Assembly (NCBI GenBank): GCA_964636325.1 | Contig: CAZWRV010000030.1 | Span: forward strand, 62-64,061 | DNA length: 64,000 nucleotides | Source: an uncultured Victivallaceae bacterium | GTDB lineage: Bacteria; Verrucomicrobiota; Lentisphaeria; Victivallales; GWF2-50-93 | Direction of reading: 5' to 3' | Shown here: positions 14,988 to 64,000 of the stretch, one piece after another | How positions within the stretch are numbered: position 1 is the stretch's first letter | Layout of the letters: each line of letters opens with the position of its first letter | Translations under genes and position numbers: made by a program | Notes under the pieces: generated by a model | Seen by the model: only the letters and a program-made list of their open reading frames with translations | The model's database searches: none | Told to the model about the DNA's origin: nothing

Positions 14988-16568
14988 CTACTTGATCTTC
15001 AGTGCGTCCCATCGCTTCTGGCCGCCGCCTATTGGAAGCTTGTAGCTGCCGCTCATGGTTGCGCCGGGGTTCATCATCTTGGAGCGGTTGTAGTAGACGA
15101 CTTCCCCGTTGACCACCTGCTTCTTGTTCCATGCGCGCAACTCCTCGACGTATTTGCCTTCGGGGGATAGGACTTCCTGCGGGACGAACTCGCGCTTGCC
15201 GCCTGGTGGGATCCATTCGAACTTCATGGTGATTATCCCGCAGACCTCGGTCAGGGAAATCTTTATGTCATATTTCTTTCCTGCCTCCAGGATGACCTTC
15301 TGGCTGTATTCTGTCGGAGCCTGCTCCTTCCATGCGTCTATAAGGACGCTGTCGCCGAGCCAGAAACGCGAACCGTCGTCCGCTGTTATGAAGAAAGTGT
15401 ATTCTCCGCCAACCTTTGGAATCAGCTGCCCTGCCCAGATCATCGATATTAGATCGGCCGTAAACTCCTCGTTCGGCTTCTTGGCCCCCCACTCGAAGTC
15501 CAGTTCAGGGTCGATCTTTTCGATGGTCTTCCCTCTAAAGGTCATCCATTCGAAATATGAGGCATAAAGCCCTCCTGCCCAAGCGCCGGTTACAGCTATG
15601 TCGCTGTCGTTGTATTCAGGATGGAAGGCCTTGGCCATGACCTTGCAGGGGCGGTTGAGGGTGATCGGCTCCTTGTAGAGCGGGGAGTCCTCGTTGGGCT
15701 CATCGCCGTTGAGCGTATATCGGATTTCCGCGTCAAGGGTTGGACAGCTTATGACGAACGGCTTCGACGGCTCGAAAATTCCGCCGTCGCACTCGAATAC
15801 CGGCGTGGCGGCCGCGGGATAAAGAATCCTGTCAGCTATCCTGGCGACCCTCTTCGCCTCCAGTTCCTGGAGCCTTTTCTCGTAAGCCTCGCGGTCGGCC
15901 TTGATCCATATCCTGCCGTCGACCAGGAGGAGCTCGTCATGCTTCTTGAGGAACTCGTCGGTCACGGCGGCGCCGAATTCGTCGAGCGTCCCCTTCACCG
16001 GTTCCTTGGAATAGTAGAAGTCGGTGTATTCCTGGATCAGGGCCGCCCTCTTCTCCTTGTCTCCGACCTTCGCGAAGAGGAGTGCGACCTCCTTGGAATT
16101 GATGATCGGATACTGCTGGAAAATCTCCATCTGGAGGTTTTCCCTGTATTCCAGAAGCTTGGCGTTGTATTCGTTCTTCTTCTTCCTGAGGTAGGCCTCC
16201 CTCTCCTTCTTGTTTTCCTCGGGAAAATATTTCAGCAAGTCCTTCCTGCCGAGGTCGTCGTTCAGTATCTTGGTGGAGCCGATCTGGACGAACCTTCCGT
16301 CAACGACGCCATTGTATTTACCCTTGGCGGTCTTCCTTCCGTTCATATAGGACAATGTGACCTCGGCGCCGAGCTGCGCCTGCGGAAAGGCCTCGTCGAA
16401 GTCCTTGTTGGCCTTGTCGGAGTCGAACTCAGGATACGTGGCCATCTTCTCGTCGTAGGCCTTCTGGCCGGCGGGCGAAAGGCTCTTGCTGGTGACGGCG
16501 ACCACGGAAGAGCAGGCGAAGACGGCGGCCGAGGCCGCCAAGGCGTGAACAAGTCTTAAATGTGGCAT
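14988..16568 (-). CDS. Secreted PA14-domain protein with chitobiase/hexosaminidase-C-like (FN3-associated) module
   Basis: Signal peptide. Central IRYTLNGDEPNEDSPLY module. C-terminal GLYASYFEW...FTADLISMIWAGQLIP..GGEYTFFITADDGSRFWLGD matches the PA14 pattern. Confidence 0.8.
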   Translation of the reverse strand: MPHLRLVHALAASAAVFACSSVVAVTSKSLSPAGQKAYDEKMATYPEFDSDKANKDFDEAFPQAQLGAEVTLSYMNGRKTAKGKYNGVVDGRFVQIGSTKILNDDLGRKDLLKYFPEENKKEREAYLRKKKNEYNAKLLEYRENLQMEIFQQYPIINSKEVALLFAKVGDKEKRAALIQEYTDFYYSKEPVKGTLDEFGAAVTDEFLKKHDELLLVDGRIWIKADREAYEKRLQELEAKRVARIADRILYPAAATPVFECDGGIFEPSKPFVISCPTLDAEIRYTLNGDEPNEDSPLYKEPITLNRPCKVMAKAFHPEYNDSDIAVTGAWAGGLYASYFEWMTFRGKTIEKIDPELDFEWGAKKPNEEFTADLISMIWAGQLIPKVGGEYTFFITADDGSRFWLGDSVLIDAWKEQAPTEYSQKVILEAGKKYDIKISLTEVCGIITMKFEWIPPGGKREFVPQEVLSPEGKYVEELRAWNKKQVVNGEVVYYNRSKMMNPGATMSGSYKLPIGGGQKRWDALKIK

Positions 16569-39955: not shown

Positions 39956-40813
39956 TCAGTTCCTGTATCCCCAGGCTTCTCGGAGGATTTCCTTGGTCTG
40001 TGCGGCGCAGGCGTCGCTGAGTCCCGGAGGGAAACGCAGGGATATTACGGAGCAGTCGTTGTTCCCGAAGTTGACGGAGCGTCGGCGTATATGCGCCGGA
40101 ATATAGCCCCAGTTGGCGCCCATCCCCTGCGGGAAGTTGTATGAGCCGTACAGCGCCACAAGCGGCTGTATATGAACCGGCGGGCATGAAAGTATCGGCA
40201 TGGTCCAGGTGCTCTTGATTGAAGTCATCCACCTGGCCCAGTTTGCCTCGGTCTGTGCGATGTTGATGCCGGCGCCTCCGTTCGCAAGTATCCCGTGTAT
40301 CGGAGAAGGGGCCCATGGGCCGTAGGCGATCGGTTCGTTGACGACACCCGCGCCGGCGGCGTTGACGGTCGGGCGCGGCAGCCCTATCGCCCTCGCAGTG
40401 AAGATGTAATATGCGTTATGGCGCTTGTCGGCTGGGACGACTTCGCTGGTTGCGGGATTGTATCCGGCAATATACGTGGCGAACCCGTAGTTCTCGGGCA
40501 GTGCCGTGCATTGTGCTACTTCGGGGTTTGGAAGATAGCGCAGTTCTACGAGGCCTTGGCTCAGCCAGGCATAGAACATGCCGCTGTTCGTGCCGGGAGG
40601 GCTCTGCTGGCAGCTGAACCATGGATAGCCCTGCTCGGTATCGCCGGCATAGCCAGCCAGAGCTACTGTCACCTGCTTCTGGAGGCTCTTGCAGCTTATC
40701 ATGTGCGCCTGCTCCTTCGCAGAACGAAGGCTCGGCATGAGGATCGACAGCAGGATTGCGATTATGGCGATGACGACGAGCAGTTCTATCAACGTAAACT
40801 TCCTTGCGTACAT
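39956..40813 (-). CDS. Prepilin-type N-terminal cleavage/methylation domain protein (DUF1559-like pseudopilin)
   Basis: [29 protein letters not shown] is a class III signal / N-methylation motif. The C-terminal H-X9-DG region is degenerate ([17 protein letters not shown]). Start set at MYARK (40813); the ORF is open to 40855. Confidence 0.85.
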
Positions 40814-40987
40814 ATGCGTCTCCCACCTGGACCGCAGCTGTTCATCTGATGGCAAGCGCCGGGAAAGGCGTCCAAAGCCTACGGTCTGATTTAATGTTTT
40901 AAAACATTATCGCGAGACATGTGAAAAGTCAAGGACAGCCAGCTTTTTTCGTGCATTCGGCTCCGACCCCGCATCATGCACCTGGGC

Positions 40988-49881: not shown

Positions 49882-49958
49882 GGGGCAGTAGCTCAGTTGG
49901 CTAGAGCGGTACGTTCGCAACGTACAGGCCAGGGGTTCGAATCCCCTCTGCTCCACCA
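49882..49958 (+). tRNA. tRNA-Ala (anticodon CGC), CCA encoded
   Basis: Hand-folded cloverleaf: acceptor GGGGCAG/CTGCTCC with the G3:U70 Ala identity pair, D arm GCTC-AGTTGGCTA-GAGC, anticodon arm GTACG-TTCGCAA-CGTAC, T arm AGGGG-TTCGAAT-CCCCT, then ACCA. Confidence 0.95.
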
Positions 49959-50103
49959 TTTATAACTACCTGCGAATGAATGAGTTAACTCTCATACTTG
50001 TAGAATCTTGCATACCCCTCCTTTACCCCTGATTTCAGACGTTTTCACGTCCAAAAAGCAAGCATAAAGGAAGCACCATTTTTCCCGCCATACTCCCTCT
50101 AGT

Positions 50104-50156
50104 CTGAATTATTCACAAACTTTTTTACATGCAAAAAACGCTTGTGAATAATTCAG
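50104..50156 (-). terminator. Long hairpin 3' of the hydrolase operon (terminator candidate / repeat)
   Basis: CTGAATTATTCACAA ... TTGTGAATAATTCAG (perfect 15-bp arms) with an inner TTTTTT-ACATGC-AAAAAA palindrome. It lies 9 nt beyond the stop at 50165. Confidence 0.45.
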
Positions 50157-50164
50157 GTTAGTCA

Positions 50165-53100
50165 TCATTCAATGCCGAACTCGAAGAGGCGGTAGTCATG
50201 GCGGCGAACAGGGCAGCTCAATACTCCGTCCTTCCACTCGAACTTGCCGTCGGGATCGTTGGCGCGGCGCTGCTCTACTGGCAGATCATCCGGGTTCTCA
50301 TCGGGCTTCATGTCTGCGACCGCCGACTCGATATTGTCATATGTCCCATTTGATTCGCTCAGTTTCGGCTTCGCGGTCGTCGTCACGTCGTCCCTGAAAT
50401 ATGTCAAAATATCCTGATCGGCCTGCCTTGCTGTGATTTTTGCAGGGGATACGTCTCCGAACCCCATTGCCATAGGATCAAGCTTCACGGAGGCATTGAA
50501 GCGTTCCGCGCCGATGTTGACAAGAATGACAACACATTTCCCAGGACATTTCCATGCCGAAACAAGGAGGTTCTTGTGGGTGTGTGACGCGAGCCCATGA
50601 AGATTCCAGTAGGGGACAAATTCTGTGTCGGGCATGTTGATCCGCGTCTCCTTGAGGACTGATTCGGGAAAGGGGCGAGCGATGTCGTGGACGGCAAGGT
50701 TGGCCGCGTAGGCGCGTTCCTGGCGGAATATCCAAGATTCATACTTCTTCTTCTCTATCGGGCCGGAATACCCGAGCCAGATAGAGGGGATGCCCCACTT
50801 CTCCGAATTCATGAAACGTATTCGGTCCGGAGGCCAGTGGTCGATGAAATCGTCCTGGCTGCAAGGATGGGAATATTTATCCTCGCCGTCCAATATTGAT
50901 GTGAAGAAAGAATGATAGGGGATGAAATACGTATGTGTTGTGTGCGCAGTCAGGCGAGGCGGATAGATTCCATGGCCGACGCAGATCTGGTATGCGCGTT
51001 TTATGCGTTCCCTGAATCCCCTGAACTCAAAGCCAGGCTGGACATGACCGTCGGCAAGCGCATATGTGTGGGGCCCACCTGCCTTGGTGTGCGGACGGTT
51101 CCAGCAGTCATCCATATAAAAACCTTGTATGAATTTGTCCGTATGTTCGATCCATTCGTTCCAAGCCCATGAGATATAGTCCAAGAACTCCGGGGTGTAA
51201 TATAGGTAGTCGTCGACATTCGGATACCCTGGATACCAAGCTTCCGCCCATTCGCGCATCTCTTTTGGAAAACCGACCCAGTTCAAGTCCCAGTAGAGTC
51301 CGGGAACCTTCTCATATTCATCCTGAGCGGGTTCGCGCCCAAGTTCCTTCCGCCATTCCGCCTTGAGCCGTGAAAACAGGATTTTCAACCCTGCCGCTTT
51401 CTTCGTCAACCCTTCGCCGTCAATCCTTCGCCGCACCGCATCCCAGTCATCCTCGGGATAGGCATGAAATACTGTGGATCTGTCTCCTTTCAGGTTGTTG
51501 CCGGTGAAGGTGTCGGGCATTACCCCGCCGCCGCGTCGCCAGTATTTGGTCAACGGGCGGACCGGCACAGGATGGAGGCCGAATTCGAAGGCCCGCAAAT
51601 CGAAGTTAACAGGTTCCGAGATGATGTTCAGCACAAGAGTAACAACTCCGTCCCCGCGTTCAACGCTGACAGCCGCATTCTCAATGCTCTGAGTCCATCC
51701 CTGGTCGTTTTCAGCGAACCATGCCATGCCTCTTTTGTCGCCAACCAGAGACATGTATGGGATGAAGCTGCCGCGAAGTTCTGGCGGACGTTCGACTATC
51801 TTGTCGTCGTTGCTGCGGAAGACAATGCCTGTGCCTTCGGGCACTGTACCAATGTGGACTACTTTCGGATTACGGAAATCACGCTGACCGCTCCACCAGT
51901 GGAACATTCCGGCATTTTCCGACCGGAATGGGATATGCATTGCAAGCCTCCCTATCCGCGCAGTTTTCCCGGCCTCAGCAGCTTTCATGGCCAGGCGGAA
52001 CCAGATCATGCCGTCGAATTCGATGCTCGCCTCGGTTTCGAAACTGACCTCTGCCGCAGAAACAGTTCCGCGCACATCGACTCTTGCCTCCTTTGCCGAG
52101 ACGATCTCGAATTTACCATTCTCCATGGGGAGAGGTTTTCCGTCAAGTAGTATCTTGATCGGACCTCCGAGGATATCTTCGCCTGCAGAGACAATATTCT
52201 CCGGGAGTCCGACGGAACTGAAGACAATCTCGCGCCCCCAGACCCTGACTGTTCGATCCCCGGCCTGAATGGGCGTCCACGGCGGCGGCACTTTGTCCGA
52301 CAATCCAGCCCTGCATTTCCACCATGGCGGCTGTTTGCGGACAATCGCCTGTTCTGCATTACCAATCACCTTGCCGTCGGTATTCTTTACTTCGGCCTTG
52401 AGAACATATTTTGCGAATTCCAGAACCGGCGTCCGGAACTCGACCATGGCCAGCTTGCGATCATTCATTGAAGCTGTTCCTCGGCCGACAGGCTTAGTGT
52501 CGCCTTCCTTGAAAAGCGCGGCCGAAACATAGGCGGCCGAGGCGTAGTCCTTCATGAGAGCTGTGATTTTCACCTTGACCAGGCCGGTCGCACCGTTGCA
52601 GTCAACGTCCATGTCCATATCCGGTAGAGGCAGCAATGGTTTGCGATGATCGCAGATACGCACCAGATTGCGGAGTTCGCTGCGGGAGAGGGCCCGTCGG
52701 TATACCCTGAAGTCATCAATCGCCGAGCGTGGAGCAGGAAGATTCAGCTTGTCCCAATACATCATGGTTCCGAATCTGAGCGCGTCCGGAAGCGACTTGA
52801 GCCACCATTCCGGAACCGGTTTTTCTCCCGTGGTGTTATTGTTCGGATACATCGCGGCCACAATCCGCCATTCTCCATGCGTGGCGTCGAAGTTTAGATC
52901 ATGCTTCTCGCCGTTCACATAGGTTGAGAACAGGCTTTTCTCGTCCCAGGTGATTGTGATGTGCGTCCAAATACCAGGGGTAAGCTGGGCCGGATTGTGC
53001 AGCGTCTCGTTCAAATCCTTGTTGATGTTGAACTCAAGGAGCCAGCCTTTCCGGCTGAAGCGGGAGTAATAAGAATCGTCAGGATAGACACCGTCGATCT

Positions 53101-54361
53101 GTAAGAGGCCGAATGTCAAAGGGCTGATGTTGTCATAAGGATTGTCACGGCTGAGGTTATCCCAGTCGAGTGGTCGCAGCCAGAAGGCGATTGTGCCTTC
53201 TTGGGGAAGGACATTGCCGATTCCCCTATAAACCGGAGAAAGCGAGCCCTCGCCCAGCATCAGCGCAGTTCCTTCGACACCGTCCGGAAATAGTTCTCTA
53301 ACCTTGGCTGGATTCAAATCGCAATCGGCCTTTGTGACGGTATGTTCTTTAAAGGCCGTCCCTGGAACGCACAGATCCGGAGTCAAGGTCCTGTTGAATC
53401 CAGCCCTGAAGATCAGGTCGGATTCGTCGCGGAAATAAGGTTGGCCGATGCGTACCGGTGCCTGTTTGTTCAACTCGACCCAGTCCAGGTCGTATTCATA
53501 GAACTCGCGTATAGTCTTGGAAATCCTGACCTCATCGATGATTCCCTTGATGCCGGACTTCATGCTTGGATCATTTCCGACTGTGACCATGTTCAGGCGG
53601 CATTCCGGCCCCAAGTCGGGCTTGCCGATCGGTTGGCGTTGCCGCCAAATCTCTTTCCCTTGCGCGAAAAGTATGACATTGTTCTCATACGGATATCTGT
53701 CTACAGTCCACTGCAGGCAGAGATGCGTCCATTGGCATACGGACAGCTTGTGGGTTCCGACTAGATATTTATTCCTGCGGATATCGACTTCGAGCGCCCC
53801 GTCCGCAAGAACGCGCAATATAATTGGACTTAACGGGAACGAGTCGGGGGTTTTAATCTGGGGATTGTCCCAGTATATGATGGTCGCGGCGGAGAGAGGC
53901 ATCTCATCAAGCTTAAGCCATAGTTCAGTGCTGTGGCTAGATAGAGACTTTGCTCCGGTGTCGAACATGAGTGCACCGCCCTTGTCGCCAAACCTGAGAC
54001 CGCCCCCGAGCCGCCCTTCGGAGACCGGAGCAGCATCTCCTTGAAGCAGACCGGGCGGTCCCATCTTGTTTGCGTTGAGAACGATTCCCGGGGCAGTCAC
54101 GGACTCGATCTTGATATCCATGCAGGGAACCTCATTATCATCGGTCAGCTCAAGCTCTTTGGAAGTCTCGTCTTTTTCGTCGAGATGGAACAGCGCCAGC
54201 GTGTAGCCGTCCCATTGATAAGGTATCCATGGCGCGGAGCGGGTCAGCAGCGGATAGTGCGGGACAGGCATTTTATTTTCCGCTCCGGAGAAAAGGCTTA
54301 AGGAAAACAGGAAACCGGTTGCCATCAATATCGTCTTATGCCTGTGTTTGTATTCGGTCAT
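50165..54361 (-). CDS. Giant secreted LamG/concanavalin-like lectin-domain protein with C-terminal glycoside-hydrolase-like (DUF4091/GH123-like) region
   Basis: 1398 aa with a signal peptide. The N-terminal half has LamG-like blocks (LHLDE.., GRLGGGLRFGD.., IDEVRIS, IDDFRVYRRALS). The C-terminal half is paralogous to 56487-60056 (shared VWGR and I-[QN]-G-x-[YW]-x-D-[DN] blocks). The family name is from memory and unverified. Confidence 0.6.
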   Translation of the reverse strand: MTEYKHRHKTILMATGFLFSLSLFSGAENKMPVPHYPLLTRSAPWIPYQWDGYTLALFHLDEKDETSKELELTDDNEVPCMDIKIESVTAPGIVLNANKMGPPGLLQGDAAPVSEGRLGGGLRFGDKGGALMFDTGAKSLSSHSTELWLKLDEMPLSAATIIYWDNPQIKTPDSFPLSPIILRVLADGALEVDIRRNKYLVGTHKLSVCQWTHLCLQWTVDRYPYENNVILFAQGKEIWRQRQPIGKPDLGPECRLNMVTVGNDPSMKSGIKGIIDEVRISKTIREFYEYDLDWVELNKQAPVRIGQPYFRDESDLIFRAGFNRTLTPDLCVPGTAFKEHTVTKADCDLNPAKVRELFPDGVEGTALMLGEGSLSPVYRGIGNVLPQEGTIAFWLRPLDWDNLSRDNPYDNISPLTFGLLQIDGVYPDDSYYSRFSRKGWLLEFNINKDLNETLHNPAQLTPGIWTHITITWDEKSLFSTYVNGEKHDLNFDATHGEWRIVAAMYPNNNTTGEKPVPEWWLKSLPDALRFGTMMYWDKLNLPAPRSAIDDFRVYRRALSRSELRNLVRICDHRKPLLPLPDMDMDVDCNGATGLVKVKITALMKDYASAAYVSAALFKEGDTKPVGRGTASMNDRKLAMVEFRTPVLEFAKYVLKAEVKNTDGKVIGNAEQAIVRKQPPWWKCRAGLSDKVPPPWTPIQAGDRTVRVWGREIVFSSVGLPENIVSAGEDILGGPIKILLDGKPLPMENGKFEIVSAKEARVDVRGTVSAAEVSFETEASIEFDGMIWFRLAMKAAEAGKTARIGRLAMHIPFRSENAGMFHWWSGQRDFRNPKVVHIGTVPEGTGIVFRSNDDKIVERPPELRGSFIPYMSLVGDKRGMAWFAENDQGWTQSIENAAVSVERGDGVVTLVLNIISEPVNFDLRAFEFGLHPVPVRPLTKYWRRGGGVMPDTFTGNNLKGDRSTVFHAYPEDDWDAVRRRIDGEGLTKKAAGLKILFSRLKAEWRKELGREPAQDEYEKVPGLYWDLNWVGFPKEMREWAEAWYPGYPNVDDYLYYTPEFLDYISWAWNEWIEHTDKFIQGFYMDDCWNRPHTKAGGPHTYALADGHVQPGFEFRGFRERIKRAYQICVGHGIYPPRLTAHTTHTYFIPYHSFFTSILDGEDKYSHPCSQDDFIDHWPPDRIRFMNSEKWGIPSIWLGYSGPIEKKKYESWIFRQERAYAANLAVHDIARPFPESVLKETRINMPDTEFVPYWNLHGLASHTHKNLLVSAWKCPGKCVVILVNIGAERFNASVKLDPMAMGFGDVSPAKITARQADQDILTYFRDDVTTTAKPKLSESNGTYDNIESAVADMKPDENPDDLPVEQRRANDPDGKFEWKDGVLSCPVRRHDYRLFEFGIE

Positions 54362-56481
54362 GCCTGCAATTCCCGGGATGAGAGCGCCTTTTTTGCATCA
54401 ATGCTCCTTGCGAAATCCGCAGTTTTAAGTAGCGGATTGGAATTCTCCCGGTTCTGCCAAGCGCGCCCCCATCCTTCGAGCTTCCTGATTCGTTCATAAA
54501 GGGGGGTACTTGCACGAGCCTCCGTCTCTATTGCTTTGAATGCCGCGCGCAGTTCTTCACGGAAATTGTTCCACGGCCCCTTGCAGAGATCCCAGCTCTT
54601 CTCGCGGCAGTTCACGTAGTAGGCCCATGCGATATTGTGGCTGATGCGCATGACGTGGAGCAGGTAACGGCATCTGAGGCGGAAGAGCTCATCCCCGTCC
54701 GCATCGGCCAAGGCCAGCGCCTTCTCCAGATCCGAGATAGCGTCCGCAAGAGCCGGAAGCTCCTCTTCCTCCATATTGTCCGCGAGAATCATCATGAGTT
54801 CATCCACCTTGTCGTTCGCCTTGATGCGTTCAAGCATATTGTAGAACCGGGAAAAGACGCCGAATGGATGGCCGATGCCCGTCTTGTCCAGTGACGCCTG
54901 GCAGAGCGTGGCCAGATCGTAGAGGGCATATGCCATGGCCTGGCTCCGAACGTCCTTGACATCCTGCGATAAGGCATAGCTGCGCAGAGTTTCATCAAGT
55001 CCGCGTCCGCAACTGTTCCAGGAATATTCCGCTGCGACGAAAAGGCCCATCTGGTCCGCGGGATAAGCGAAGGACATGGAGTTGATTCCCCTGAACCGTC
55101 CGTCGATGGCATGGGCAATGTTACGGCGGATGACTTCGAGAACAGCCGGACGCGCAATTCCGCCGACAACTGTATTGCATAGAGACAGCCAATGGCCTTC
55201 GGCTGCAGCCTGAGAAAGCTCGGGAGGGATAGGATTGAATTTCCGAGTCGTATACGTGCCGCGCCGTTCGCCGGAATAGAAGCTCCACTTGGTGTCTTTC
55301 GGGAAACTTCTTATTATCTGGGGATTTTCAGGATACGAACCCTGCGTCAGAAGTATCTTCAGGCCGACGTCGGATTTAGACTCATGCCGGACGCGGTCGA
55401 TGATCTTGTGGAAGACCTGTGCCTCCTTTAAGAAATAGCTTTCCTTGGAATTGGAGATCGCATGCAGGCGGTTTTCAGCCATCCAGAAGCAGATTTCATC
55501 AGGGGAATATGCGTCACACAGCCCCACGGCGAGATCACCCATGAGGCGCACCGCCTTGTCATCGTAGTAATTTATTGGCAACCCGAGGCTGTGCCCATGA
55601 TGCCATATGGACACTCCCGGCTTCAGCTCAGGATGCAACTTGCGTATCAAAGCGAAATGATCCGTATGCGACACCGTCGGAACGATCCTTATGCCCCTTG
55701 AACGGGCGTAGGCCATCATCCTGCCCATAAGAACCTGAGTGCTTTTGGCATCCGTGGCGGACAGCCTTGGATCCTTCTTGTTAACCCATGAGCAACCATT
55801 GCCGGCAAGGGCAATCACTTCAATCAGATTTATCTTGTGGTCGCTCAACCAGTCTATCAAATTACGGTAATGCTTTTCCGCATCCACCAGTCTTGTTGCG
55901 GATGCCCCATCTAGCGTGAAAGTGTTTGTCCAGATACCACGATCCTCCAAGTCGGCGCCGTCGAGGATTCTGACCATCGGAATCCTGACTGTCCTACCGT
56001 TATAACTAATGAGCTGTTTCAACGTCTTCATGCCCCAGTATACACCCTGCCGGTCAAGCCCCTGCAGGACAAGCTCATCCTGTCCGACGGAGCAGATTCG
56101 ATAAGAGTGGAAGCCGACAGGGCCTTTAGCTCCTGAAAAGAAGGGTGCTTGAAAGACGGCGGAATATTTGCCGCAGCCATTGCCAGATAACAGATGTATA
56201 TGAAAGGGGCGCACCCGGCCGGGCTTTGCGTCCATTCGAGGCTTGCATCCTGTTCTCGACTGGAAGAATCCAGCCAGCTCGTCGGCCGCCCTCAGCGTCC
56301 ACAGCTCCTTATCATGACATTTTACGACAAGCCTCTTCGACTCGACTCCAATAGCGCCATTGATTTCGATCCGACGTGGCATTGGCGACAGCCCCTGCAT
56401 GGATTCAATTTCCAACATATATTCACCGGTCTTATTGCTGACGTTGCAGTCGTGGTTTATTCTCCGTGAGAGTTTGCCCAT
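54358..56481 (-). CDS. Putative glycoside hydrolase (GH20-like fold), cytoplasmic or start mis-set
   Basis: The roughly 700-aa ORF has an ATGA overlap with the downstream gene. N-terminal P-M-P-R-R-I-E-I-N-G module, then VRILDGADLEDRGIW, reminiscent of the GH20 domain-2/catalytic junction. Candidate starts are 56526, 56481 and 56418. Confidence 0.45.
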   Translation of the reverse strand: MGKLSRRINHDCNVSNKTGEYMLEIESMQGLSPMPRRIEINGAIGVESKRLVVKCHDKELWTLRAADELAGFFQSRTGCKPRMDAKPGRVRPFHIHLLSGNGCGKYSAVFQAPFFSGAKGPVGFHSYRICSVGQDELVLQGLDRQGVYWGMKTLKQLISYNGRTVRIPMVRILDGADLEDRGIWTNTFTLDGASATRLVDAEKHYRNLIDWLSDHKINLIEVIALAGNGCSWVNKKDPRLSATDAKSTQVLMGRMMAYARSRGIRIVPTVSHTDHFALIRKLHPELKPGVSIWHHGHSLGLPINYYDDKAVRLMGDLAVGLCDAYSPDEICFWMAENRLHAISNSKESYFLKEAQVFHKIIDRVRHESKSDVGLKILLTQGSYPENPQIIRSFPKDTKWSFYSGERRGTYTTRKFNPIPPELSQAAAEGHWLSLCNTVVGGIARPAVLEVIRRNIAHAIDGRFRGINSMSFAYPADQMGLFVAAEYSWNSCGRGLDETLRSYALSQDVKDVRSQAMAYALYDLATLCQASLDKTGIGHPFGVFSRFYNMLERIKANDKVDELMMILADNMEEEELPALADAISDLEKALALADADGDELFRLRCRYLLHVMRISHNIAWAYYVNCREKSWDLCKGPWNNFREELRAAFKAIETEARASTPLYERIRKLEGWGRAWQNRENSNPLLKTADFARSIDAKKALSSRELQA

Positions 56482-56486
56482 TGGCC

Positions 56487-59400
56487 TTATTCCGCCTCGA
56501 TCGCCAGCACGACATATTCGTGCCATGGCACGACGAGCACCTGATTAATCCGCCACTTCCCGTCCTGTGCGGCCACGGCTACGTCCCGCTCTGTTTCCAA
56601 GTCGTATATGCGTTTGATCTTGCGCGGTGCATCAGGCAGAGGATGCCCGGAGATTATCTTGTTCACGTCAAGTACGGTTCCTTCCAGGGACAAGTCCTTT
56701 CTTGAGATGTTGCCGAATATGACGGCGGTGCTGAGCGTTGCAGTGTTGGAGTAGAACGAAACCTTTATGTCGGCATCCGGCGGTGTTATGAACGCCGTGG
56801 AGTTCCAATAGCCGGTGAAGAGGCAGCGGATGCAGTCAGGAAGGTCGACCAGCGCGTCAAGCCTGCGACGAAGAGGATATAGGAAGGAATTAATGTTAGT
56901 GTAGTCGACTATAGGAACGATATCGTGCAGCAATTGGATTGCGGCCAGGCTACGCCCTATTTTCAGCCCGCGTGAGGGATCTGGATGTTTCTCCCAGCTT
57001 CTAAAAAAACCGCCGTAGGAAGGCTTGGGAACAAGCATTGTGGTCTTGGTCCTCGTAAGGGCACGATACTGATCCAGGGACCACACATCAAAAGACGTGT
57101 AGTCGGCGTTTGATGAGAACCAGAGGTTCTCTATCTGCCATGCCATCTGGTTGAACGACATGTCGGAGCAATGCATGTTGCTTGTCCAAAAAGGCGGGCG
57201 CATGAGTTCCCATCCAAGATGATTCAGGCGTTTTAAAAGCTGGCGCCTCTGCCAGAGGTTGAATGACAGTTCCATGTGCCCGGTTTCGGGGTTGTATTCC
57301 CTTATAGTTCCGATCGAGGCGTTGTCCCACCATGTACCGTTGATGCCGCACTTCTCCATCAGAGGCTTGTGGTACCATATGAAGAAGTCGTTATAGCTGG
57401 CCGTCCAGTTATACCACCAAGGGGTCAGCTGCTCTTCGCTGGTCCACTTTATTGTTCCGCCGTCGTTCAATTGGTTGGCATAGCTTGGATCCGGACGCGG
57501 CTTCCAGTCGCTCCTCCCAAGCCATTCACCGCCGAAAGTCTTATGTTCGGGGGCGCCAACGCCGCCCATGAAAGTGGAACCGTATAGGACAATCCGGTTG
57601 GCGTTGCGGAATCGTTCGTGAAAAATATTCATGTTCCCTGCTGTGATTTCCGGATATTTCGTCCCATATAGCAGATGCCTGCGCAAAGCCGTGAAATCTC
57701 TCTCATCATGCAACGCATAGCCGTCCACGGAATCGCCATAAGTCCTGTAGCCTGGGGTGGCATGGGCGATACCGCCCTCCTGCACCAAAGTCCGGTAGCG
57801 CGGGTTGTTGGGCTTCATGGGTGCCGCCTGGAAGGCGAAACGCAGATTCCGGGGTTTGTCGACCGTGACCGGCCCGGCCAGGAGACGAACGGTCATGCGC
57901 ACCTGCCCATTCTCAAGGCGTTCCAAGCACATCATGGGCTGTTCAGCGCGCAGTTCCCATCCGGCATCAGACCAAGCGAAGAACCACAGGCCGCGGTCAC
58001 CGCTGCCGACATACGAAACCGGCACGAAGGAGAGCCAGTCCTTGCCACGGTCGCAGTAGGCTGCCAGCTCAGTGCTTTCAAAAAACAGACCCGGACTCGA
58101 CGGAATCGCTCCGAAACGGTTGCCTGCCCAAGAATCGCCGTTGCGCTGGATGTACAAGGTATCAGCCGGGATGTCGGCCAGTTCGAGAAGCAGATCTAGC
58201 GACTCGACCACGAGATGCTTTTCAGGAGTCAGCGTAAGTTTCACTCCATACCATCCATCGTATTCGAGGGTTCCCGATATATCGGCACGGATATCCCCCA
58301 GCTTCTGGCTGCCGGCGATTTCGACGGCATGAGCAGCCACACACGGGAACTTGACTTCGGCATCCGCCGCCGCCACCATCTTGTTGTCGGTCTTCAGCAG
58401 CAATCGCATTGGAGATGCCAACAAGCCAGCCTCAAGGCCGCGCTGTCCTGTAGGCATTCTGGCGCTGATGCCGTCAAGCAAACCTCCCTTTCCGACCAAA
58501 TAGCTGCGACCCCACACTGAAAGCCGGCGGTCTTTAACAGCAATGGGGGAGAAGGGCGGAATGACCTCCTCGTTTATTCCAAGAGTATTGTGCTCAAATG
58601 GGTAATGGCGACGTTCGAACTTGGATGTCTGCTCGGCAATCCGTCCGCCTTCCGAGTCAAGGAGCTGGAAAACAGCTTCATAGTCCCCATCATCAAGGGA
58701 TGGAACGTCGAGCAACAGCGATCCTGTCCTATCCCGGATGGGCGCTGCGCCAAACGCCAAAGTGCTGCGGAACCAGCCGTTTACGGGACGGATCGCCACC
58801 TTGAAAGATGCCGCCGCCTGAATTTCGGCAGGAACTCCGAAGAAGTCCAAATCCACTCCGGCCTCGGCCTTTCCACTGTATGGAAGATAAGCCAAGTGCG
58901 ACTCCCATGCGCCGCTCTGTGGTCTGCCTGCAAGCCACTTGACGAGATACTCCGTCCGGTAAGATCCGTTTAGAGCTACAAAAGGCTGGCGATTATGGTA
59001 GAGCACCGTATTGCCAGACAATGCCTTTATTTCCATCCAGTTGCGCTTGGAATCCTTCTGGGTTATTTGAGTTATCGGAATGCCTGTTTTCTTGAAATGC
59101 GCTTCCGCAGACTCGCCAGGATTCAGCTTTAGGGTTCGGTTTTCCCGGAAGATATTCTTGCCCTCAGCGTTTTCAACCGAGACCTCAATGAATGCTTCAG
59201 CGGGCTTGCTTCCGCCGGCAACTGAGATCATCGTGTCGAGCATGCCGTCCATGACTTCTCCGGTTTTCGTGTAGCGGAAGACCGGAGCGTCCGGGGCGAA
59301 ATCAACACGTGCGAATCGCTTCCATTCGGTCCAGCAGCCAGGCACCAGACCGGCAAAGTAGAAACCGCCCGACTCGTCGGCGCGCACAAGTTGCATCACC

Positions 59401-60056
59401 AGGCTTCGGCCATCCAGTGAATCAATGTTCATGCGCTTGAGCTCCACAGCCATTTCGAGCTGCCATGCATCCTCCGTAACATGACATTTGAGCGGTCCTC
59501 CCATCGACCAAAGCGTTTCCGATCCGGGCGTGCCGTTGAAAAACCACATGTCTGTCACAGCGCCCTTGGGATTGGCCATGATCTTATAAAAACCCTTCCC
59601 CTCGAACATTGCATCCTTACGTTCGTTAGTCAGTATCTGCACCTCGACGTGATCCTCGAAAAGCAAAGCTTCACTCTCGTTTTCCTTCACACGTGCCTTG
59701 GGATACGTCCCCTTGGGGTTTGGAGAATGCATCGCCAGATAAAGATATTTGCTGTCGTAGCCGATATACCAGATAACCTGCTGGACTTCCGCAACCATCG
59801 AGAAGGGGCCTACGCCGCCGGTCGACGCAAGGCCGGTGATAGCCGCCGCCCCCCGCCATTCCTCCTGTCCGATCACTCCGTCTATATTCGGCGGCACCTT
59901 CATCTTCGGCGCCAGCAACACGGGATACTCGAATTTTCCGGATTCATCCTCTTCCGCCCAAGCAACTCCCCCCAGGATAATCGCTCCTAAGGCGCAGGTC
60001 ACTATTGGAGTCCAGAAGGCGCATGATGCATCCTTATGCCATCCAAATCTTCTCAT
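56487..60056 (-). CDS. Giant secreted CBM9-like + glycoside-hydrolase-like (DUF4091/GH123-like) protein
   Basis: 1189 aa with a signal peptide and AAGGGGG RBS. N-terminal PNIDGVIGQEEWRGAA...YLYLAMHSPNP...EDHVEVQIL (CBM9/DOMON-like). The C-terminal region is paralogous to 50165-54361. Confidence 0.6.
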   Translation of the reverse strand: MRRFGWHKDASCAFWTPIVTCALGAIILGGVAWAEEDESGKFEYPVLLAPKMKVPPNIDGVIGQEEWRGAAAITGLASTGGVGPFSMVAEVQQVIWYIGYDSKYLYLAMHSPNPKGTYPKARVKENESEALLFEDHVEVQILTNERKDAMFEGKGFYKIMANPKGAVTDMWFFNGTPGSETLWSMGGPLKCHVTEDAWQLEMAVELKRMNIDSLDGRSLVMQLVRADESGGFYFAGLVPGCWTEWKRFARVDFAPDAPVFRYTKTGEVMDGMLDTMISVAGGSKPAEAFIEVSVENAEGKNIFRENRTLKLNPGESAEAHFKKTGIPITQITQKDSKRNWMEIKALSGNTVLYHNRQPFVALNGSYRTEYLVKWLAGRPQSGAWESHLAYLPYSGKAEAGVDLDFFGVPAEIQAAASFKVAIRPVNGWFRSTLAFGAAPIRDRTGSLLLDVPSLDDGDYEAVFQLLDSEGGRIAEQTSKFERRHYPFEHNTLGINEEVIPPFSPIAVKDRRLSVWGRSYLVGKGGLLDGISARMPTGQRGLEAGLLASPMRLLLKTDNKMVAAADAEVKFPCVAAHAVEIAGSQKLGDIRADISGTLEYDGWYGVKLTLTPEKHLVVESLDLLLELADIPADTLYIQRNGDSWAGNRFGAIPSSPGLFFESTELAAYCDRGKDWLSFVPVSYVGSGDRGLWFFAWSDAGWELRAEQPMMCLERLENGQVRMTVRLLAGPVTVDKPRNLRFAFQAAPMKPNNPRYRTLVQEGGIAHATPGYRTYGDSVDGYALHDERDFTALRRHLLYGTKYPEITAGNMNIFHERFRNANRIVLYGSTFMGGVGAPEHKTFGGEWLGRSDWKPRPDPSYANQLNDGGTIKWTSEEQLTPWWYNWTASYNDFFIWYHKPLMEKCGINGTWWDNASIGTIREYNPETGHMELSFNLWQRRQLLKRLNHLGWELMRPPFWTSNMHCSDMSFNQMAWQIENLWFSSNADYTSFDVWSLDQYRALTRTKTTMLVPKPSYGGFFRSWEKHPDPSRGLKIGRSLAAIQLLHDIVPIVDYTNINSFLYPLRRRLDALVDLPDCIRCLFTGYWNSTAFITPPDADIKVSFYSNTATLSTAVIFGNISRKDLSLEGTVLDVNKIISGHPLPDAPRKIKRIYDLETERDVAVAAQDGKWRINQVLVVPWHEYVVLAIEAE

Positions 60057-60437
60057 GTTTCCCCCTTTCTTTATTTAATATCCTAAGGCGGGCTTCGCCC
60101 GCAACCCAAAATTCAATGAATTCCATAGACACATGCATGCTTTTGTGATAGAAGTTTTTAAGAAAGTATCCTAATTTCTTTGGCAATGAATCATATGAGT
60201 GCCCTCGCATAATCTGCCCCGTCAAATAAAGATTTTCTTTGATGGCTTGGACAAGGCCTCGGGATGCCGTAGAATCATACCGGACCGGAAGCCAAGCCCA
60301 AGCGAGAGCATGATTCAATAAGCTATGGAATCCGATCATAAACGCCACCTTTTTCCACTGCCTACGTTCAAATCAGGCATGGCATATTGCTTTTGGCATC
60401 CCAAGGATTAAACTCACTGTATTCAAAGATGCTTGAT

Positions 60438-61373
60438 TCACTTCTGTCCCATGTATGTGGCATACGACCATAGTCCACCAGTTCCTCCCTGGGAAAAGTA
60501 CCCGTTCCCATAATTCAGGACATTCGAATCAAGATTCAGGATGACATATGCGGGCGTTGAGAACCACTGGACATGCCCGTCAATATATGTGCAATTAATT
60601 CCTTTCTTCCAATGGGTGATCGGAGAATACTGGCTGGGCGTATCTAGGGATGCCTTGAATCGAAAACACTGGATGTATGCTGTCAAATGATCAATTTTCC
60701 CATAGAACGACTTGTCTGGATCCCAGTTTGCCGCATTTCTACCGGGCATCCCGAAACGGCCTTTGGCCGTATTGCTTGGAGTATTTTCATAGAATACACA
60801 GGTGTTGGTTGCATATGATCCCCAATAGTCGGTGGCAGGATTCGCAAGAACTTTCTCATACATTTCTTTAAAGGACTTGACCGTTTGATCTTTCTGCTCC
60901 GAGGGACATGTGAAAGCATCGGACGGTACCATGTAGTCAGGAGCAAGCTTGGCAATACCCCACCACGCTCTTATCAGAGTATCAGGAGGGGTTGGAGAGT
61001 TATATGTCACGTATCCATTATTCCCGAAAAATCCGGTTCCGAAATAATTGTTGCTCCTGTATCCGCTCCATGCATTTGTTTCAGGAAGCATCTGGCTGTA
61101 GTCGTTGGAATAGTTCGCAAGCCCAGTATAAAGCTGCTTGTGGTTGCTGATGCATACCGCCCGTCTCCCCATCTCCTTGGCGACTTTCAGCGCGGGGAGT
61201 AAAATCGCCATAAGAATCGCGATAATCGCAATCACCACCAGAAGTTCTATTAGGGTGAATGCCGCCCGATGAAACGGGGAGTTTTCTAGCCATAGGCCAA
61301 AACGTGCATGAAGTTTCCCCTCATGCGGCTTCCCCACTGGAATTTCCTTTAGGATTTCGACATTCCGCCTCAT
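60438..61373 (-). CDS. Prepilin-type N-terminal cleavage/methylation domain protein (DUF1559 / H-X9-DG-type pseudopilin)
   Basis: [26 protein letters not shown] methylation motif. C-terminal [18 protein letters not shown] (H-X10-DG). The ORF is open to 61709 (ATGA overlap with the regulator's stop). Other candidate starts are ATG 61373 and GTG 61337 (AGGA RBS). Confidence 0.8.
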
Positions 61374-61705
61374 ACCCGCGCTTATCCCCGGCCGGGAGAA
61401 CCGTGTCAGACCTCCCCCGTTGCTTGAGGTCGCTTCCTCTTCGTGCCGCCCCCTTTTACACTGTCGGACAGACGGGCGCTGCCCATTCCCTTCCCGCGGC
61501 TTTGTCGCCATGCTTAGTGACGGAGCATGGCTGTCCGCCATGACGGTCAGGCGACCTGCCTGAATTGGGCAATTGGCAGGGACATAGCTTGAATATGTCA
61601 AGTGACTCCAGCCTTCGCTGGGCACATGTTCGATCAGTGTGAAAGCGGCACTTCTCGCTCCGGTAGCGCCGGTGACATCCGGCAGAATTGAAGAAACTTG
61701 AGTTC

Positions 61706-63172
61706 TCATGCAATCAACCTTTCAGCTTTTACCGCAGGCAGATAGCTTGTTTCAGCCAGGAGGTGCTTGAGTCTTGCGATACATTCACTCCTTGTGAGTT
61801 TCCCCGCCATGAAATCCCTGTTGCAGGCTTCTATGTTCATGATGAACCAGTAGTAGGCTGCGGTCATCGGATGAAGAAGCGTGCATTTCCGCAGATTCTC
61901 CCCTATCAGGGTTTCAGGCAGATGATGGTTTCTCACATAGGTCCCGTCTATCAACTCCTGGTATATGGGCAGGTTCAAATGCAGGGATGCAAAGAGATTC
62001 TGGACTTCTCTAGAGCAGAGATACTTCACCAAGCTTATACATTCGCTCATATATTTCGCTCCAGATGAAATGGCAAAGCACGATAGTGTTACTTCCTGCT
62101 TGGCACCGGGTGCGAGCGGTTTCTCTATGACATCCCAGCCGCCCTCCTTCCTGTTGTTCAATTCGGTGAAGAGATGAGATGTGTTTCTCAGGAGCAGAAG
62201 CCGATCGTCGAAAAACTCCCGCAACTGGTCGGGATTGATAGCATTGCGGCCTTTAAGGGTGAGACCATCGACAAATGATATGAAATCCTCGGTTTTCTGC
62301 CAGTCGATTGCAGGCAGGCCGTTGCTCTTCCACAAAAGTGCTCCGGAATTGACCAGGTTGTAGTAAAGACCGCTAGGGTAAAAGCCATACTCGTCCACAT
62401 TTGCATATTTTTTTTCAAATAGCTCCCCAAGTCTGAAAATATCATCATATGTTCTTGGCTCCCGGAACTCTTTGAATTTGGCCTTGAGACTCCTATTTAT
62501 GAATAGAAATGGCAGGGAGACAGCAAAGGGAATGACGCATTGATGGCTATATGGACTTTTCACGAACTCATGCAGTATGCATGCAAGTTCTGCTTCCTGT
62601 ATCCCGATTTCGGCAAGATCCTCGAACTGGACGAATTTGTCGTATCCTATACTGTCCAGTATATGCGGGGTCGTGTTGAGGATGTCAAAATGTTCTTTCT
62701 TCCAGGCATCTTCAATATGGTTGCTGGCGCAGCTTGAATATGAGATATCCACATTGTTTTTCCTCCCGTACTCCTTCAGCACCACATCCCACAGCATCGA
62801 TATGTTTGAGTCATAGTCCGAAATGAAAATGCGCAGACTGGGCCTACTGTTGAAAAAAACAGGGGTAAGATATTCCGAGAAGTCAGTGATCTTCTCGTTG
62901 CCTGGATTCGCTCCCTTTGAAAGAACTCCTTCCCCGGAACAGATTTTCCGCGAGACAGAATAGCCTTTACCACCTTTAACGAGGACAGATCTAGAAACCA
63001 AGATATGGAGGGCGGACAGGACTATTCTCTGGCTTACCTTGTAGAACTTGACAAGTTCTCTGATAGACAGTATCCTGTCACCGGGGGCAAGCCTGCCCGT
63101 CCGAATCTGTAGGTTGATATCATCAACAAGCTCTTTCACTTTGTCGGGTTTCTTTATATTTCCTAATGGCAT
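61706..63172 (-). CDS. GntR-family winged-HTH regulator fused to a periplasmic solute-binding-protein-like sensor domain
   Basis: N-terminus [38 protein letters not shown] (GntR wHTH). The remaining roughly 400 aa resemble an SBP fold. Start at 63172 is supported by a GGGAGG RBS and an upstream consensus promoter. GC is about 42%. Confidence 0.8.
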
Positions 63173-63200
63173 GGCGGTGAAAACCTCCCTTTTTCCATTT

Positions 63201-63229
63201 ATTGTAGCATTATGTTTACAAATTGTCAA
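63201..63229 (-). promoter_or_regulatory. Near-consensus sigma-70 promoter of the GntR/SBP regulator
   Basis: On the minus strand: TTGACA - 17 nt (ATTTGTAAACATAATGC) - TACAAT, then a roughly 22-nt leader with GGGAGG before the ATG at 63172. Confidence 0.6.
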
Positions 63230-63250
63230 CATAATGATTGCATTATGTCA
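63208..63250. promoter_or_regulatory. Candidate operator (inverted plus direct repeats of CATTATGT) overlapping the promoter
   Basis: CATTATGTT-N11-AACATAATG is a perfect 9-bp inverted repeat (63208-63236), with a third GCATTATGTCA copy at 63240-63250. It contains the GT..AC cores typical of GntR operators. Confidence 0.35.
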
Positions 63251-63524
63251 TTTTTTATTCATTGCGGCAGTAGCCATGCCCCTTTTGAAGTGAGCCGCAA
63301 AAAGCGGCAAAACTCTGTCTTTTTCCGCATTTATAGCTCGCTTGTTATGCTGCGGCGCCCCCCCTGCCGACAATGTCCTGCGAGTTCCTGCACCATGCTG
63401 TGATTTCCCGCGACACCGAGAGTGTTGGAGATTGCGCGCAATGTAAGGGCTGCATGAAGCCATCCTAACCCATCTTTCGCCATCCCCGATCTGATGGAAG
63501 AAGGGGTGCAGCACGAGGTCGCTT

Positions 63525-63761
63525 TTGAGTATCCGGAAGGCGCATGCGGAGCGCGCGGCCAGATTCGAAAGAATAATCTACCAGATAGAGGACAAGGCCG
63601 GAAAGGAAAGTTTCGCGAGCAGGAGGGACGCCTGCCTGTGGCTGTCGGAAAACGCACGCGGGCTTGCAGCTTGCTTCGCCGTAAAAAACGGCGAAGGCGG
63701 AAAAGCGAAGATAGCCAGAAAGGCGCGGGCCGTCGCCAGCGCGACCGCTCACTTCGGATAA
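63525..63761 (+). CDS. Hypothetical small protein (weak call)
   Basis: The 78-codon TTG-start ORF (SIRKAHAERAARFERIIYQIEDKAGKESF...) is the only frame in 63.25-63.9 kb with protein-like composition and GC3 bias. No family was recognised. Confidence 0.25.
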   Translation: MSIRKAHAERAARFERIIYQIEDKAGKESFASRRDACLWLSENARGLAACFAVKNGEGGKAKIARKARAVASATAHFG

Positions 63762-63972
63762 GCGGTAGTGCTGACCGATAGAAAGGGACGGACGGGCGAG
63801 GAGGTGCTTGCCGACCACCGGAGCAGGGACTTGGCCGATCGGCAGTGAATATCCCGTTGCCAGTATAGATACCACAATTTTTTTAGTTTAGGTTCCACGG
63901 CTGGACGCTCACGGTGTTCCGCTGATACGGAAGGCGCATTTCAATGATGCGGATTCTACAGCCCGGTGCAGA

Positions 63973-64000
63973 GTATGAATTCAGCAAACTACGCCCTTTT
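63973..64000. repeat. R1 palindromic REP-like element (cut by window end)
   Basis: GTATGAATTCAGCAAACTACGCCCTTTT is identical to the first 28 nt of the copy at 38085. Confidence 0.8.

Follow-up and report, generated by a model that had tools for sequence, protein, structure and literature searches.

What is a pilin-like gene doing between a sugar-sensing regulator and a set of very large secreted proteins? The question arises from one locus in the genome of an uncultured Victivallaceae bacterium (GenBank assembly GCA_964636325.1), which we analysed within a 64,000-nucleotide (nt) stretch of contig CAZWRV010000030.1 (positions 62 to 64,061; hereafter the window). The locus, which we call the cassette, comprises genes for a GntR-type regulator, a pilin-like protein and three large proteins termed E1, E2 and E3. 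An initial annotation, made from the letters alone, had proposed it as a pilin-coupled locus for glycan utilisation. We found that this operon design is real and recurrent, and that it is facultative as to the pilin. With a probability of roughly 60%, we read the cassette as an autoregulated, sugar-inducible operon that would supply secreted giant glycosidase-like proteins together with a co-induced, cassette-specific pilin-like accessory. Our confidence in any specific role of the pilin is much lower.

Recurrence of regulator, pilin and enzyme strings

The closest homologues of the window pilin are found in similar layouts in three loci, L003, L001 and L004. In L003, a GntR regulator with an SBP_bac_8 domain is followed by a pilin (~40% identity), a β-helix protein, an E1 homologue (33.5% identity over 1,149 amino acids (aa)) and a glycoside hydrolase (GH) of family 2. 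L001 runs from a GntR regulator through a β-helix protein and two consecutive pilins to an E1-like gene, and two pilins in L004 precede a GDSL protein to which the E1-family profile aligns as well. The placement that had first drawn attention to the cassette, with a pseudopilin lodged between a sugar-sensor-type regulator and glycan-type enzymes, recurs in these loci and in others.

A genome scan with a pilin alignment returned 80 loci across the Planctomycetes–Verrucomicrobia–Chlamydiae (PVC) phyla, mostly through generic matches to the N-terminus, and was used as a broad PVC sample. Among 70 immediate upstream neighbours of pilins, 7 carried Peripla_BP_3 and 6 of the same 70 carried GntR. 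This corresponds to a regulator adjacency of only ~10%, with an odds ratio of 4.8 (P = 0.035) by local hidden Markov models (HMMs). Within the Lentisphaerota-type subset, the pilin directly follows a GntR–Peripla_BP_3 regulator in L021, L053, L056, L061, L075 and L079 and a LacI regulator in L084, and an AraC regulator is divergent in L077. The genes downstream of those pilins encode GH78, GH39/42-like, DUF4838/GH67N/CBM9, GH123_cat, β-helix and LamG/GH42-like proteins. Across Lentisphaerota, the slot next to the regulator is repeatedly filled by one to three pilin-like genes ahead of very different carbohydrate-active enzymes (CAZymes).

A second sample was drawn from the enzyme side. An alignment of E1 yielded 42 metagenome loci, labelled with local HMMs, of which 29 were unique and included an upstream gene. 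In 8 of these 29 loci, the gene immediately upstream of the E1-like gene is a same-strand pilin gene. The background, taken from those genes of the sampled loci that have no E1-like neighbour, is 8/141 (5.7%; binomial P = 1.6e-4). Three pilins precede the E1-like gene of L087, and three units of GntR–Peripla_BP_3 regulator, pilin and GH123_N protein fall within 19 kilobases (kb) of L088. In other loci, pilin and enzyme genes overlap by up to 4 nt or lie up to 115 nt apart, as is typical of operons. The initially postulated association of such pilins with CAZyme and regulator genes is seen as an enrichment next to E1-like genes, though a facultative one. As a separate observation, the units of L088/L098 (19.6 kb) occur alongside melibiase and GH35 genes, a striking multiplication of cassettes.

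Anatomy of the cassette

All five genes lie on the minus strand, as first described and as the list of open reading frames (ORFs) shows (Table 1). The same description had called them tightly packed, which is contradicted by two gaps, one of ~368 nt between regulator and pilin and one of 381 nt between pilin and E1. These gaps contain no terminator-like site and one weak promoter-like site, and an Rfam search of the gaps gave no match and no riboswitch. The long hairpin noted at the far end of the cassette was recovered directly 3' of the E3 stop and probably marks the end of transcription.

Table 1. Features of the cassette and its border, in window coordinates.
Feature	Position	Strand	Details
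Five same-strand ORFs (ORF list)	61706-63232, 60438-61709, 56487-60056, 54358-56526, 50165-54361	-	
Palindrome	63208-63236	.	14-nt arms (ATTATGTTTACAA A TTGTCAACATAAT) over the -35 box and spacer; candidate GntR operator
Sigma-70-like promoter	63201-63229	-	TTGACA-17-TACAAT, TG-extended; 11/12 matches
Regulator	61706-63172	-	488 aa; GntR winged helix-turn-helix (wHTH) at aa 13-70, plus ~380-aa MalE-like SBP_bac_8-type domain
Decayed pilin 5' stub	61626-61709	-	ATG over regulator stop (ATGA); ~21-aa leader + AAFTLIEH
Pilin-like gene	60438-61337	-	~299 aa; inferred start GTG 61337; class III signal motif; DUF1559-related
Non-coding gap, pilin/E1	60057-60437	-	381 nt; promoter-like site 60364-60335, 9/12 matches
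E1	56487-60056	-	1,189 aa; secreted, signal peptide; DUF6067/'GH123_N' family
E2	54358-56418	-	~686 aa; GH20 domain-2-like N-terminal domain; longest ORF 722 aa from 56526
E3	50165-54361	-	1,398 aa; secreted, signal peptide; LamG domains, E1-type core
AT-rich hairpin	50099-50161	-	28-nt arms; directly 3' of E3 stop; -27.9 kcal/mol, z = -3.5
tRNA-Ala(CGC)	49882-49958	+	Borders cassette, beside the GC drop

The regulator had been described as a GntR-wHTH protein with a part resembling a solute-binding protein (SBP), starting at position 63172. A ribosome-binding site, AAGGGAGG, precedes this ATG. As the promoter sits within the longest ORF (to 63232), translation must start there. The N-terminus matches GntR (Pfam PF00392; 29 bits, threshold 27), and the C-terminal domain of the window protein itself has no direct Pfam match. 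A word-index search returned only the query, but 78 relatives, most of them 455–530 aa long, emerged when 1.84 billion representatives were searched exhaustively with HMMER. In the aligned family (n = 53), GntR is matched by 52 members, SBP_bac_8 by 41 and SBP_bac_1 by 7, and the Peripla_BP domain is not what these 53 members match. Positions 109–473 of the family profile match sugar-binding proteins of ATP-binding cassette (ABC) transporters, for example SmoF (1.4e-20), and the N-terminus matches GntR helix-turn-helix structures. Profile comparison thereby confirmed, at the level of the family, a GntR wHTH fused to a MalE-like sugar-binding sensor; for the SBP part, the initial reading holds at that level only.

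Regulators of this GntR–SBP_bac_8 type adjoin E1-like genes in four independent loci, namely the window, L003 (8500-9975), L090 (648-2207) and L091 (3-962). To our knowledge, the combination of GntR with a MalE-like SBP_bac_8 domain is not among the classical GntR subfamilies. One by-product of the analysis is this small regulator class, apparently not described before, in which a GntR DNA-binding domain is joined to a MalE-like sugar-binding domain. The consensus promoter and palindrome that the initial annotation had assigned to the regulator were both recovered. The palindrome occurs once in the window, where no match is expected by chance, and a second copy is present neither in the gaps nor in the rest of the window.

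E1 has 45 full-length homologues with 33–62% identity, annotated at most as 'DUF6067 family'. Pfam matched part of PF19543 (GH123_N, formerly DUF6067) on its β-sandwich domains, and sequence and profile comparison with the Protein Data Bank (PDB) gave no match. The AlphaFold model is confident, with a predicted local distance difference test (pLDDT) score of 89 and a predicted template modelling (pTM) score of 0.84. It shows a signal helix, β-sandwiches at aa 45–745, an α/β barrel-like region at ~780–1070 and a C-terminal β-sandwich. The top Foldseek matches are GH2 β-galactosidases (E ≈ 1e-12 to 1e-13, probability 1.0). With a TM score of only ~0.16, these share domain types with E1 but not the overall fold. 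The catalytic domain of GH123 (PF13320) was not matched even at E ≤ 1 on sub-fragments, and the family alignment contains no adjacent invariant Asp-Glu pair; D911 and E976 of E1 are each invariant in it. Kinship of the E1 family with GH123_cat was also tried by hhalign against a GH123_cat-bearing protein and rejected (probability 0.1%).

E2 is 686 aa long according to an independent gene call. It carries Glyco_hydro_20b (PF02838, GH20 domain 2; E = 3e-7) and weakly matches the GH20 structure 6yhh over aa 146–303 (E = 7.6e-4). The catalytic barrel of GH20 (PF00728) was not found, aa 190–722 of the longest ORF remained unmatched by Pfam on sub-fragments at E ≤ 1, and no signal peptide was detected. 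Of the GH20-like protein of about 700 aa proposed at first, domain 2 stands. E3 overlaps the stop codon of E2 by ATGA, as had been noted, and combines LamG with the same PF19543 segment as E1, to whose core it is 22% identical. The N-termini of both E1 and E3 resemble signal peptides, in line with their description as secreted proteins, and the LamG assignment of E3 likewise holds. The CBM9-like character ascribed to E1 could not be reproduced: Pfam found no CBM9 in any of the large proteins, sub-fragments at E ≤ 1 included.

E1-like genes elsewhere have GH42, melibiase, GH35, GH2, GH28, β-helix lyase-like, sulfatase and GH127 neighbours. This CAZyme company makes a glycan-degrading role of the large proteins likely. 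E1-like proteins (~1,170 aa) are encoded next to LamG-bearing E3-like proteins (1,260–1,600 aa) in the window, L090, L094, L107, L111, L132 and L134, which suggests that the pair works as a two-enzyme functional unit. A second by-product is a conserved DUF6067 family of ~1,180 aa with a confident multi-domain model, often paired with a LamG-bearing paralogue. In L087 (11521-17659, minus strand), two E1-like genes flank those for two glycyl-radical enzymes and their radical S-adenosylmethionine activase, a hint that a deoxy-sugar or related product freed by the E1-like enzymes is broken down anaerobically.

The window is chromosomal, containing purL, rseP, gyrA, folP, rpoD and ybbR, and the named relatives of its proteins point to a Lentisphaerota-like genome as the probable source. 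The G+C content of the cassette (50165-63400) is 0.45–0.56, against 0.58–0.62 in the flanking housekeeping genes, and with the tRNA border this hints at horizontal acquisition. No second copy of the tRNA 3' end as an att-like repeat was found within the window and no integrase was seen there, and for these reasons we dropped the idea of a genomic island. A partial Rfam match to transfer-messenger RNA at the same position was rejected, as the sequence is that of the tRNA-Ala. The ~770 nt upstream of the regulator promoter (63233-64000) contain no convincing ORF and no Rfam match, with a G+C content of up to 0.565. Elsewhere in the window are genes for an 810-aa melibiase/GH31-like protein (4778-7207, plus strand) and for a 526-aa protein with PA14 and a chitobiase/hexosaminidase C-terminal domain (14991-16568, minus strand).

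The pilin-like gene and rival explanations

The pilin ORF had been thought to overlap the regulator stop as ATGA. That overlap belongs to a decayed 5' stub, and the live gene probably starts ~370 nt further downstream, at a GTG behind AAGGAA. Four findings mark the 423-aa, ATGA-coupled pilin as an artefact of taking the longest ORF. The prepilin motif lies at residues 148–171 of the 423-aa ORF. The five closest homologues are 275–324 aa long, with short and unrelated leaders. Long N-terminal extensions of pilins in other loci (L021 and L044) are not conserved. Finally, the 372-nt extension (61338-61709) has G+C values of.573/.573/.573 at the three codon positions, unlike all genuine genes here, which show GC1 > GC2 < GC3; this flat profile marks it as non-coding. 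The public annotation of the contig (protein P0002, NCBI source) also gives the pilin as 423 aa, very probably ~124 codons too long. In the stub, the hydrophobic helix is missing after AAFTLIEH. A similar stub occurs in L021 (5100-5199, plus strand), where a leader and FTLIE run into a stop codon directly 3' of the regulator. Such remnants behind sugar regulators in two unrelated loci suggest that the 5' end of pilin genes, which is highly conserved, is a site of deletion or recombination, and this is a possible mechanism of cassette shuffling.

The live protein has Phe1, Glu5 and a hydrophobic stretch of ~20 residues, the N-terminal signature of type IV pilins and pseudopilins, with a predicted long α1 helix, a predicted small β head and conserved Cys residues. 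Its N-terminus matches N_methyl of Pfam (E = 2e-8; 33.9 bits, threshold 21.2) and TIGR02532 of NCBIfam (E = 1.3e-6). Across the subfamily, Glu5 and the hydrophobic helix are strictly conserved, three Cys are conserved, and the C-terminal motif H242-X10-D253-G254 is invariant. The proposed identity as a DUF1559/H-X9-DG pseudopilin stands in part. DUF1559 (PF07596, SBP_bac_10) scores 22.6 bits, below the cut-off of 23.3, and aligns over profile positions 3–35 of 268 only. More distant phmmer homologues carry PF07596, which makes the window pilin a divergent DUF1559 relative. The H-X9-DG part did not hold, as the spacing is H-X10-DG and TIGR04294 is not among the NCBIfam matches at E ≤ 0.01. NCBIfam matches to GspG, ComGC and PilA span only the N-terminal 25–57 residues, and by these comparisons the protein is not orthologous to any named pseudopilin. 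A second pilin-like gene (39956-40855, minus strand), with Lys at position -1, follows ybbR and precedes an unannotated 293-aa ORF, among housekeeping genes and outside any CAZyme cassette.

A number of observations weigh against the reading of the cassette as a glycosidase operon with a dedicated pilin. Sequence searches recognise no catalytic domain in E1, E2 or E3. The closest syntenic locus, L090, has a divergent GntR–SBP regulator and both giants (the E1 orthologue with 51% and, as the next gene, the E3 orthologue with 45% full-length identity), and contains no pilin motif in any frame. There is likewise no adjacent pilin in L089, L091, L132 and L134, so E1-type enzymes need none beside them. 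In L133 no pilin was seen, but the E1-like gene lies at the contig end, with most of its upstream side outside the contig. Pilins preceding other E1 homologues share nothing past the N-terminus with the window pilin, whose head is similar only to pilins in L001–L005, L088/L098 and L106/L111, and marginally in L009. Heads so poorly conserved argue against a tight, enzyme-specific partnership.

Further points concern the pilin itself. It is flanked by gaps of ~370–380 nt and a dead stub, compatible with its having been shuffled in by recombination. Its -1 residue is Ala instead of Gly, and A, N, V, G or S occurs there in close homologues, which makes processing by a prepilin peptidase uncertain; Ala at -1 permits partial cleavage in Pseudomonas PilA. 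The structural model (helix at 29–79, short strands in a small sheet, pLDDT 68) has no significant match among PDB structures, the best being the FimA pilin (E = 3). Among the ORFs scanned in the 64-kb window we saw no machinery of a type II secretion system (T2SS), type IV pilus (T4P) or other pilus, no prepilin peptidase and no assembly ATPase or platform. Neither the cassette nor the other large window ORFs scanned encode a GspD secretin, GspE ATPase or GspF platform protein; small ORFs were scanned in part.

One way to account for such points is to regard the pilin as a passenger. The locus would then be an ordinary regulator with a CAZyme cluster, entered by a member of an expanded, recombination-prone family that has no functional link to it; the conserved 5' sequence would drive recombination into flexible CAZyme islands. 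The stubs here and in L021, the large gaps around the pilin, the pilin-free L090 and the failure of heads to be conserved alongside the enzymes all fit this explanation. So do the second pilin-like gene among housekeeping genes, the lower G+C content of the cassette beside a tRNA, and the sheer frequency of pilin-like genes in the sampled loci (89/937 ORFs). A passenger would not be expected, however, to recur in a same-strand slot exactly between sugar regulators of several families and enzymes of many, nor at short or overlapping distances in other loci. The enrichment over local background also speaks against it, as does the retention of every subfamily-invariant residue in the window pilin. 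We consider this explanation rather unlikely.

Alternatively, the protein may be an anchored periplasmic binding protein, bitopic in the inner membrane and not part of a fibre, whose head binds oligosaccharides and passes them to an importer or sensor. This would suit the non-Gly, variable -1 residue, the absence of pilus and T2SS genes from the cassette, and the cytoplasmic sugar sensing by the regulator, which implies import. It would also suit the Pfam label SBP_bac_10 for DUF1559, described as a solute-binding family (PMC2754498). Against it, the cassette has no transporter gene, the head shows no similarity to known SBP folds, and Glu5 and the pilin-type helix, a signature of assembly-competent pilins, are strictly conserved. 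We hold it to be improbable.

We retain the operon with a co-induced, pilin-like accessory as the preferred reading. The conserved core is the regulator type together with E1 and E3; a pilin is often, though not obligatorily, present in the slot beside the regulator, and it changes fast.

Proposed mechanism and comparison with known systems

In the model that we favour, a cytoplasmic GntR repressor with a MalE-like sensor would occupy the palindrome across its own promoter. A breakdown product would bind the repressor, allowing transcription of the regulator gene and, by read-through, of the genes behind it. We infer read-through because the operator is unique, the gaps lack a consensus promoter and no terminator precedes the final hairpin. 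E1 and E3 would most likely act as exo- or endo-glycosidases outside the cytoplasm. E2, GH20b-like and without a signal peptide, would act on imported fragments. The pilin would most likely be a co-induced, cassette-specific accessory subunit, inserted into the inner membrane through its class III signal and anchor helix. It might join a shared T2SS- or T4P-like fibre encoded elsewhere, and it might help to keep the enzymes of its operon in place, to display them or to export them, or might itself bind the glycan on which they act.

In several PVC genomes, no paralogue family is larger than that of the DUF1559-type proteins: Planctopirus limnophila has 68 paralogues, of which two are essential (PMC10632474), and Rhodopirellula baltica has 74 copies (PMC2754498). 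Papers naming DUF1559 describe an expanded family with no assigned function. Its members recur at the head of the structural genes in sugar-regulated CAZyme operons, which offers a handle on candidate inducers and partner enzymes and touches on the question of how PVC bacteria take up or process polysaccharides without SusC/D. In a wider and doubtful extension of our reading, the expanded DUF1559/HX9DG family of PVC bacteria would form a library of sugar-induced modules, each specific to its cassette and fitted into one shared pseudopilus or pilus. A given module would adapt the fibre to the capture of one glycan, or to the export or tethering of adjacent enzymes, in a PUL-like logic (that of a polysaccharide-utilisation locus) that dispenses with SusC/D. 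Such a library could underlie the fibre-mediated uptake of macromolecules proposed for Planctomycetes, which is still described as mechanistically unknown (PMC12673574). We found no description of a pilin within a sugar-regulated CAZyme operon in the open-access papers and preprints searched. The novel part is the pilin-like accessory; the sugar-regulated CAZyme cluster itself is known.

Compared with the DUF1559/H-X9-DG family, the window pilin shares the N-terminal prepilin motif, a predicted small head and a C-terminal His...Asp-Gly motif, and differs in its sub-threshold DUF1559 score, the missing TIGR04294 match and the H-X10-DG spacing. The regulator resembles AraR-type GntR proteins, which control glycan-utilisation genes, in joining a GntR DNA-binding domain to a sensor of periplasmic-binding-protein fold. 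AraR-type proteins, however, carry a LacI-type Peripla_BP domain; in the window regulator its place is taken by a MalE-like SBP_bac_8 domain, of the kind known from ABC-transporter binding proteins. True AraR-like regulators precede pilins in the six Lentisphaerota-type loci with GntR–Peripla_BP_3 regulators listed above and in L088.

The SusC/SusD PULs of Bacteroidota likewise combine a substrate-specific regulator, glycan-degrading enzymes that are secreted or sit at the surface, and an accessory protein that is not catalytic, and occur as many variant cassettes per genome. The present cassette differs in having no TonB-dependent transporter or SusD: SusC-like and SusD-like domains are absent from all five genes by Pfam and NCBIfam. 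Its accessory is pilin-like and optional. Regulation also differs, as cassettes of this kind use one-component cytoplasmic GntR, LacI or AraC regulators, whereas PULs use SusR, hybrid two-component systems (HTCS) or extracytoplasmic function (ECF) sigma/anti-sigma pairs.

In the Pul secreton of Klebsiella, the T2SS genes pulC–O, which include those for the pseudopilins PulG–K, lie beside the pullulanase gene pulA under maltose control. As in the cassette with its probable glycan degraders, pseudopilin genes are co-localised with a secreted glycan-degrading enzyme, and Pul is sugar-induced, as the cassette would be. Unlike Pul, the loci described here lack genes for an ATPase, platform or secretin and have only one, two or three pilin genes, and their pilin is DUF1559-like and not an orthologue of GspG–K.

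In Caldicellulosiruptor, the glucan degradation locus is preceded by a T4P locus and tapirins, which are linked to attachment to polysaccharide (bioRxiv 10.1101/622977). This arrangement is similar in placing a pilus-related locus directly upstream of giant multi-domain glycoside hydrolases. That system comprises a full T4P machinery, is found once per genome and belongs to a Gram-positive organism, whereas in the window a single cassette-specific pilin stands behind a dedicated regulator.

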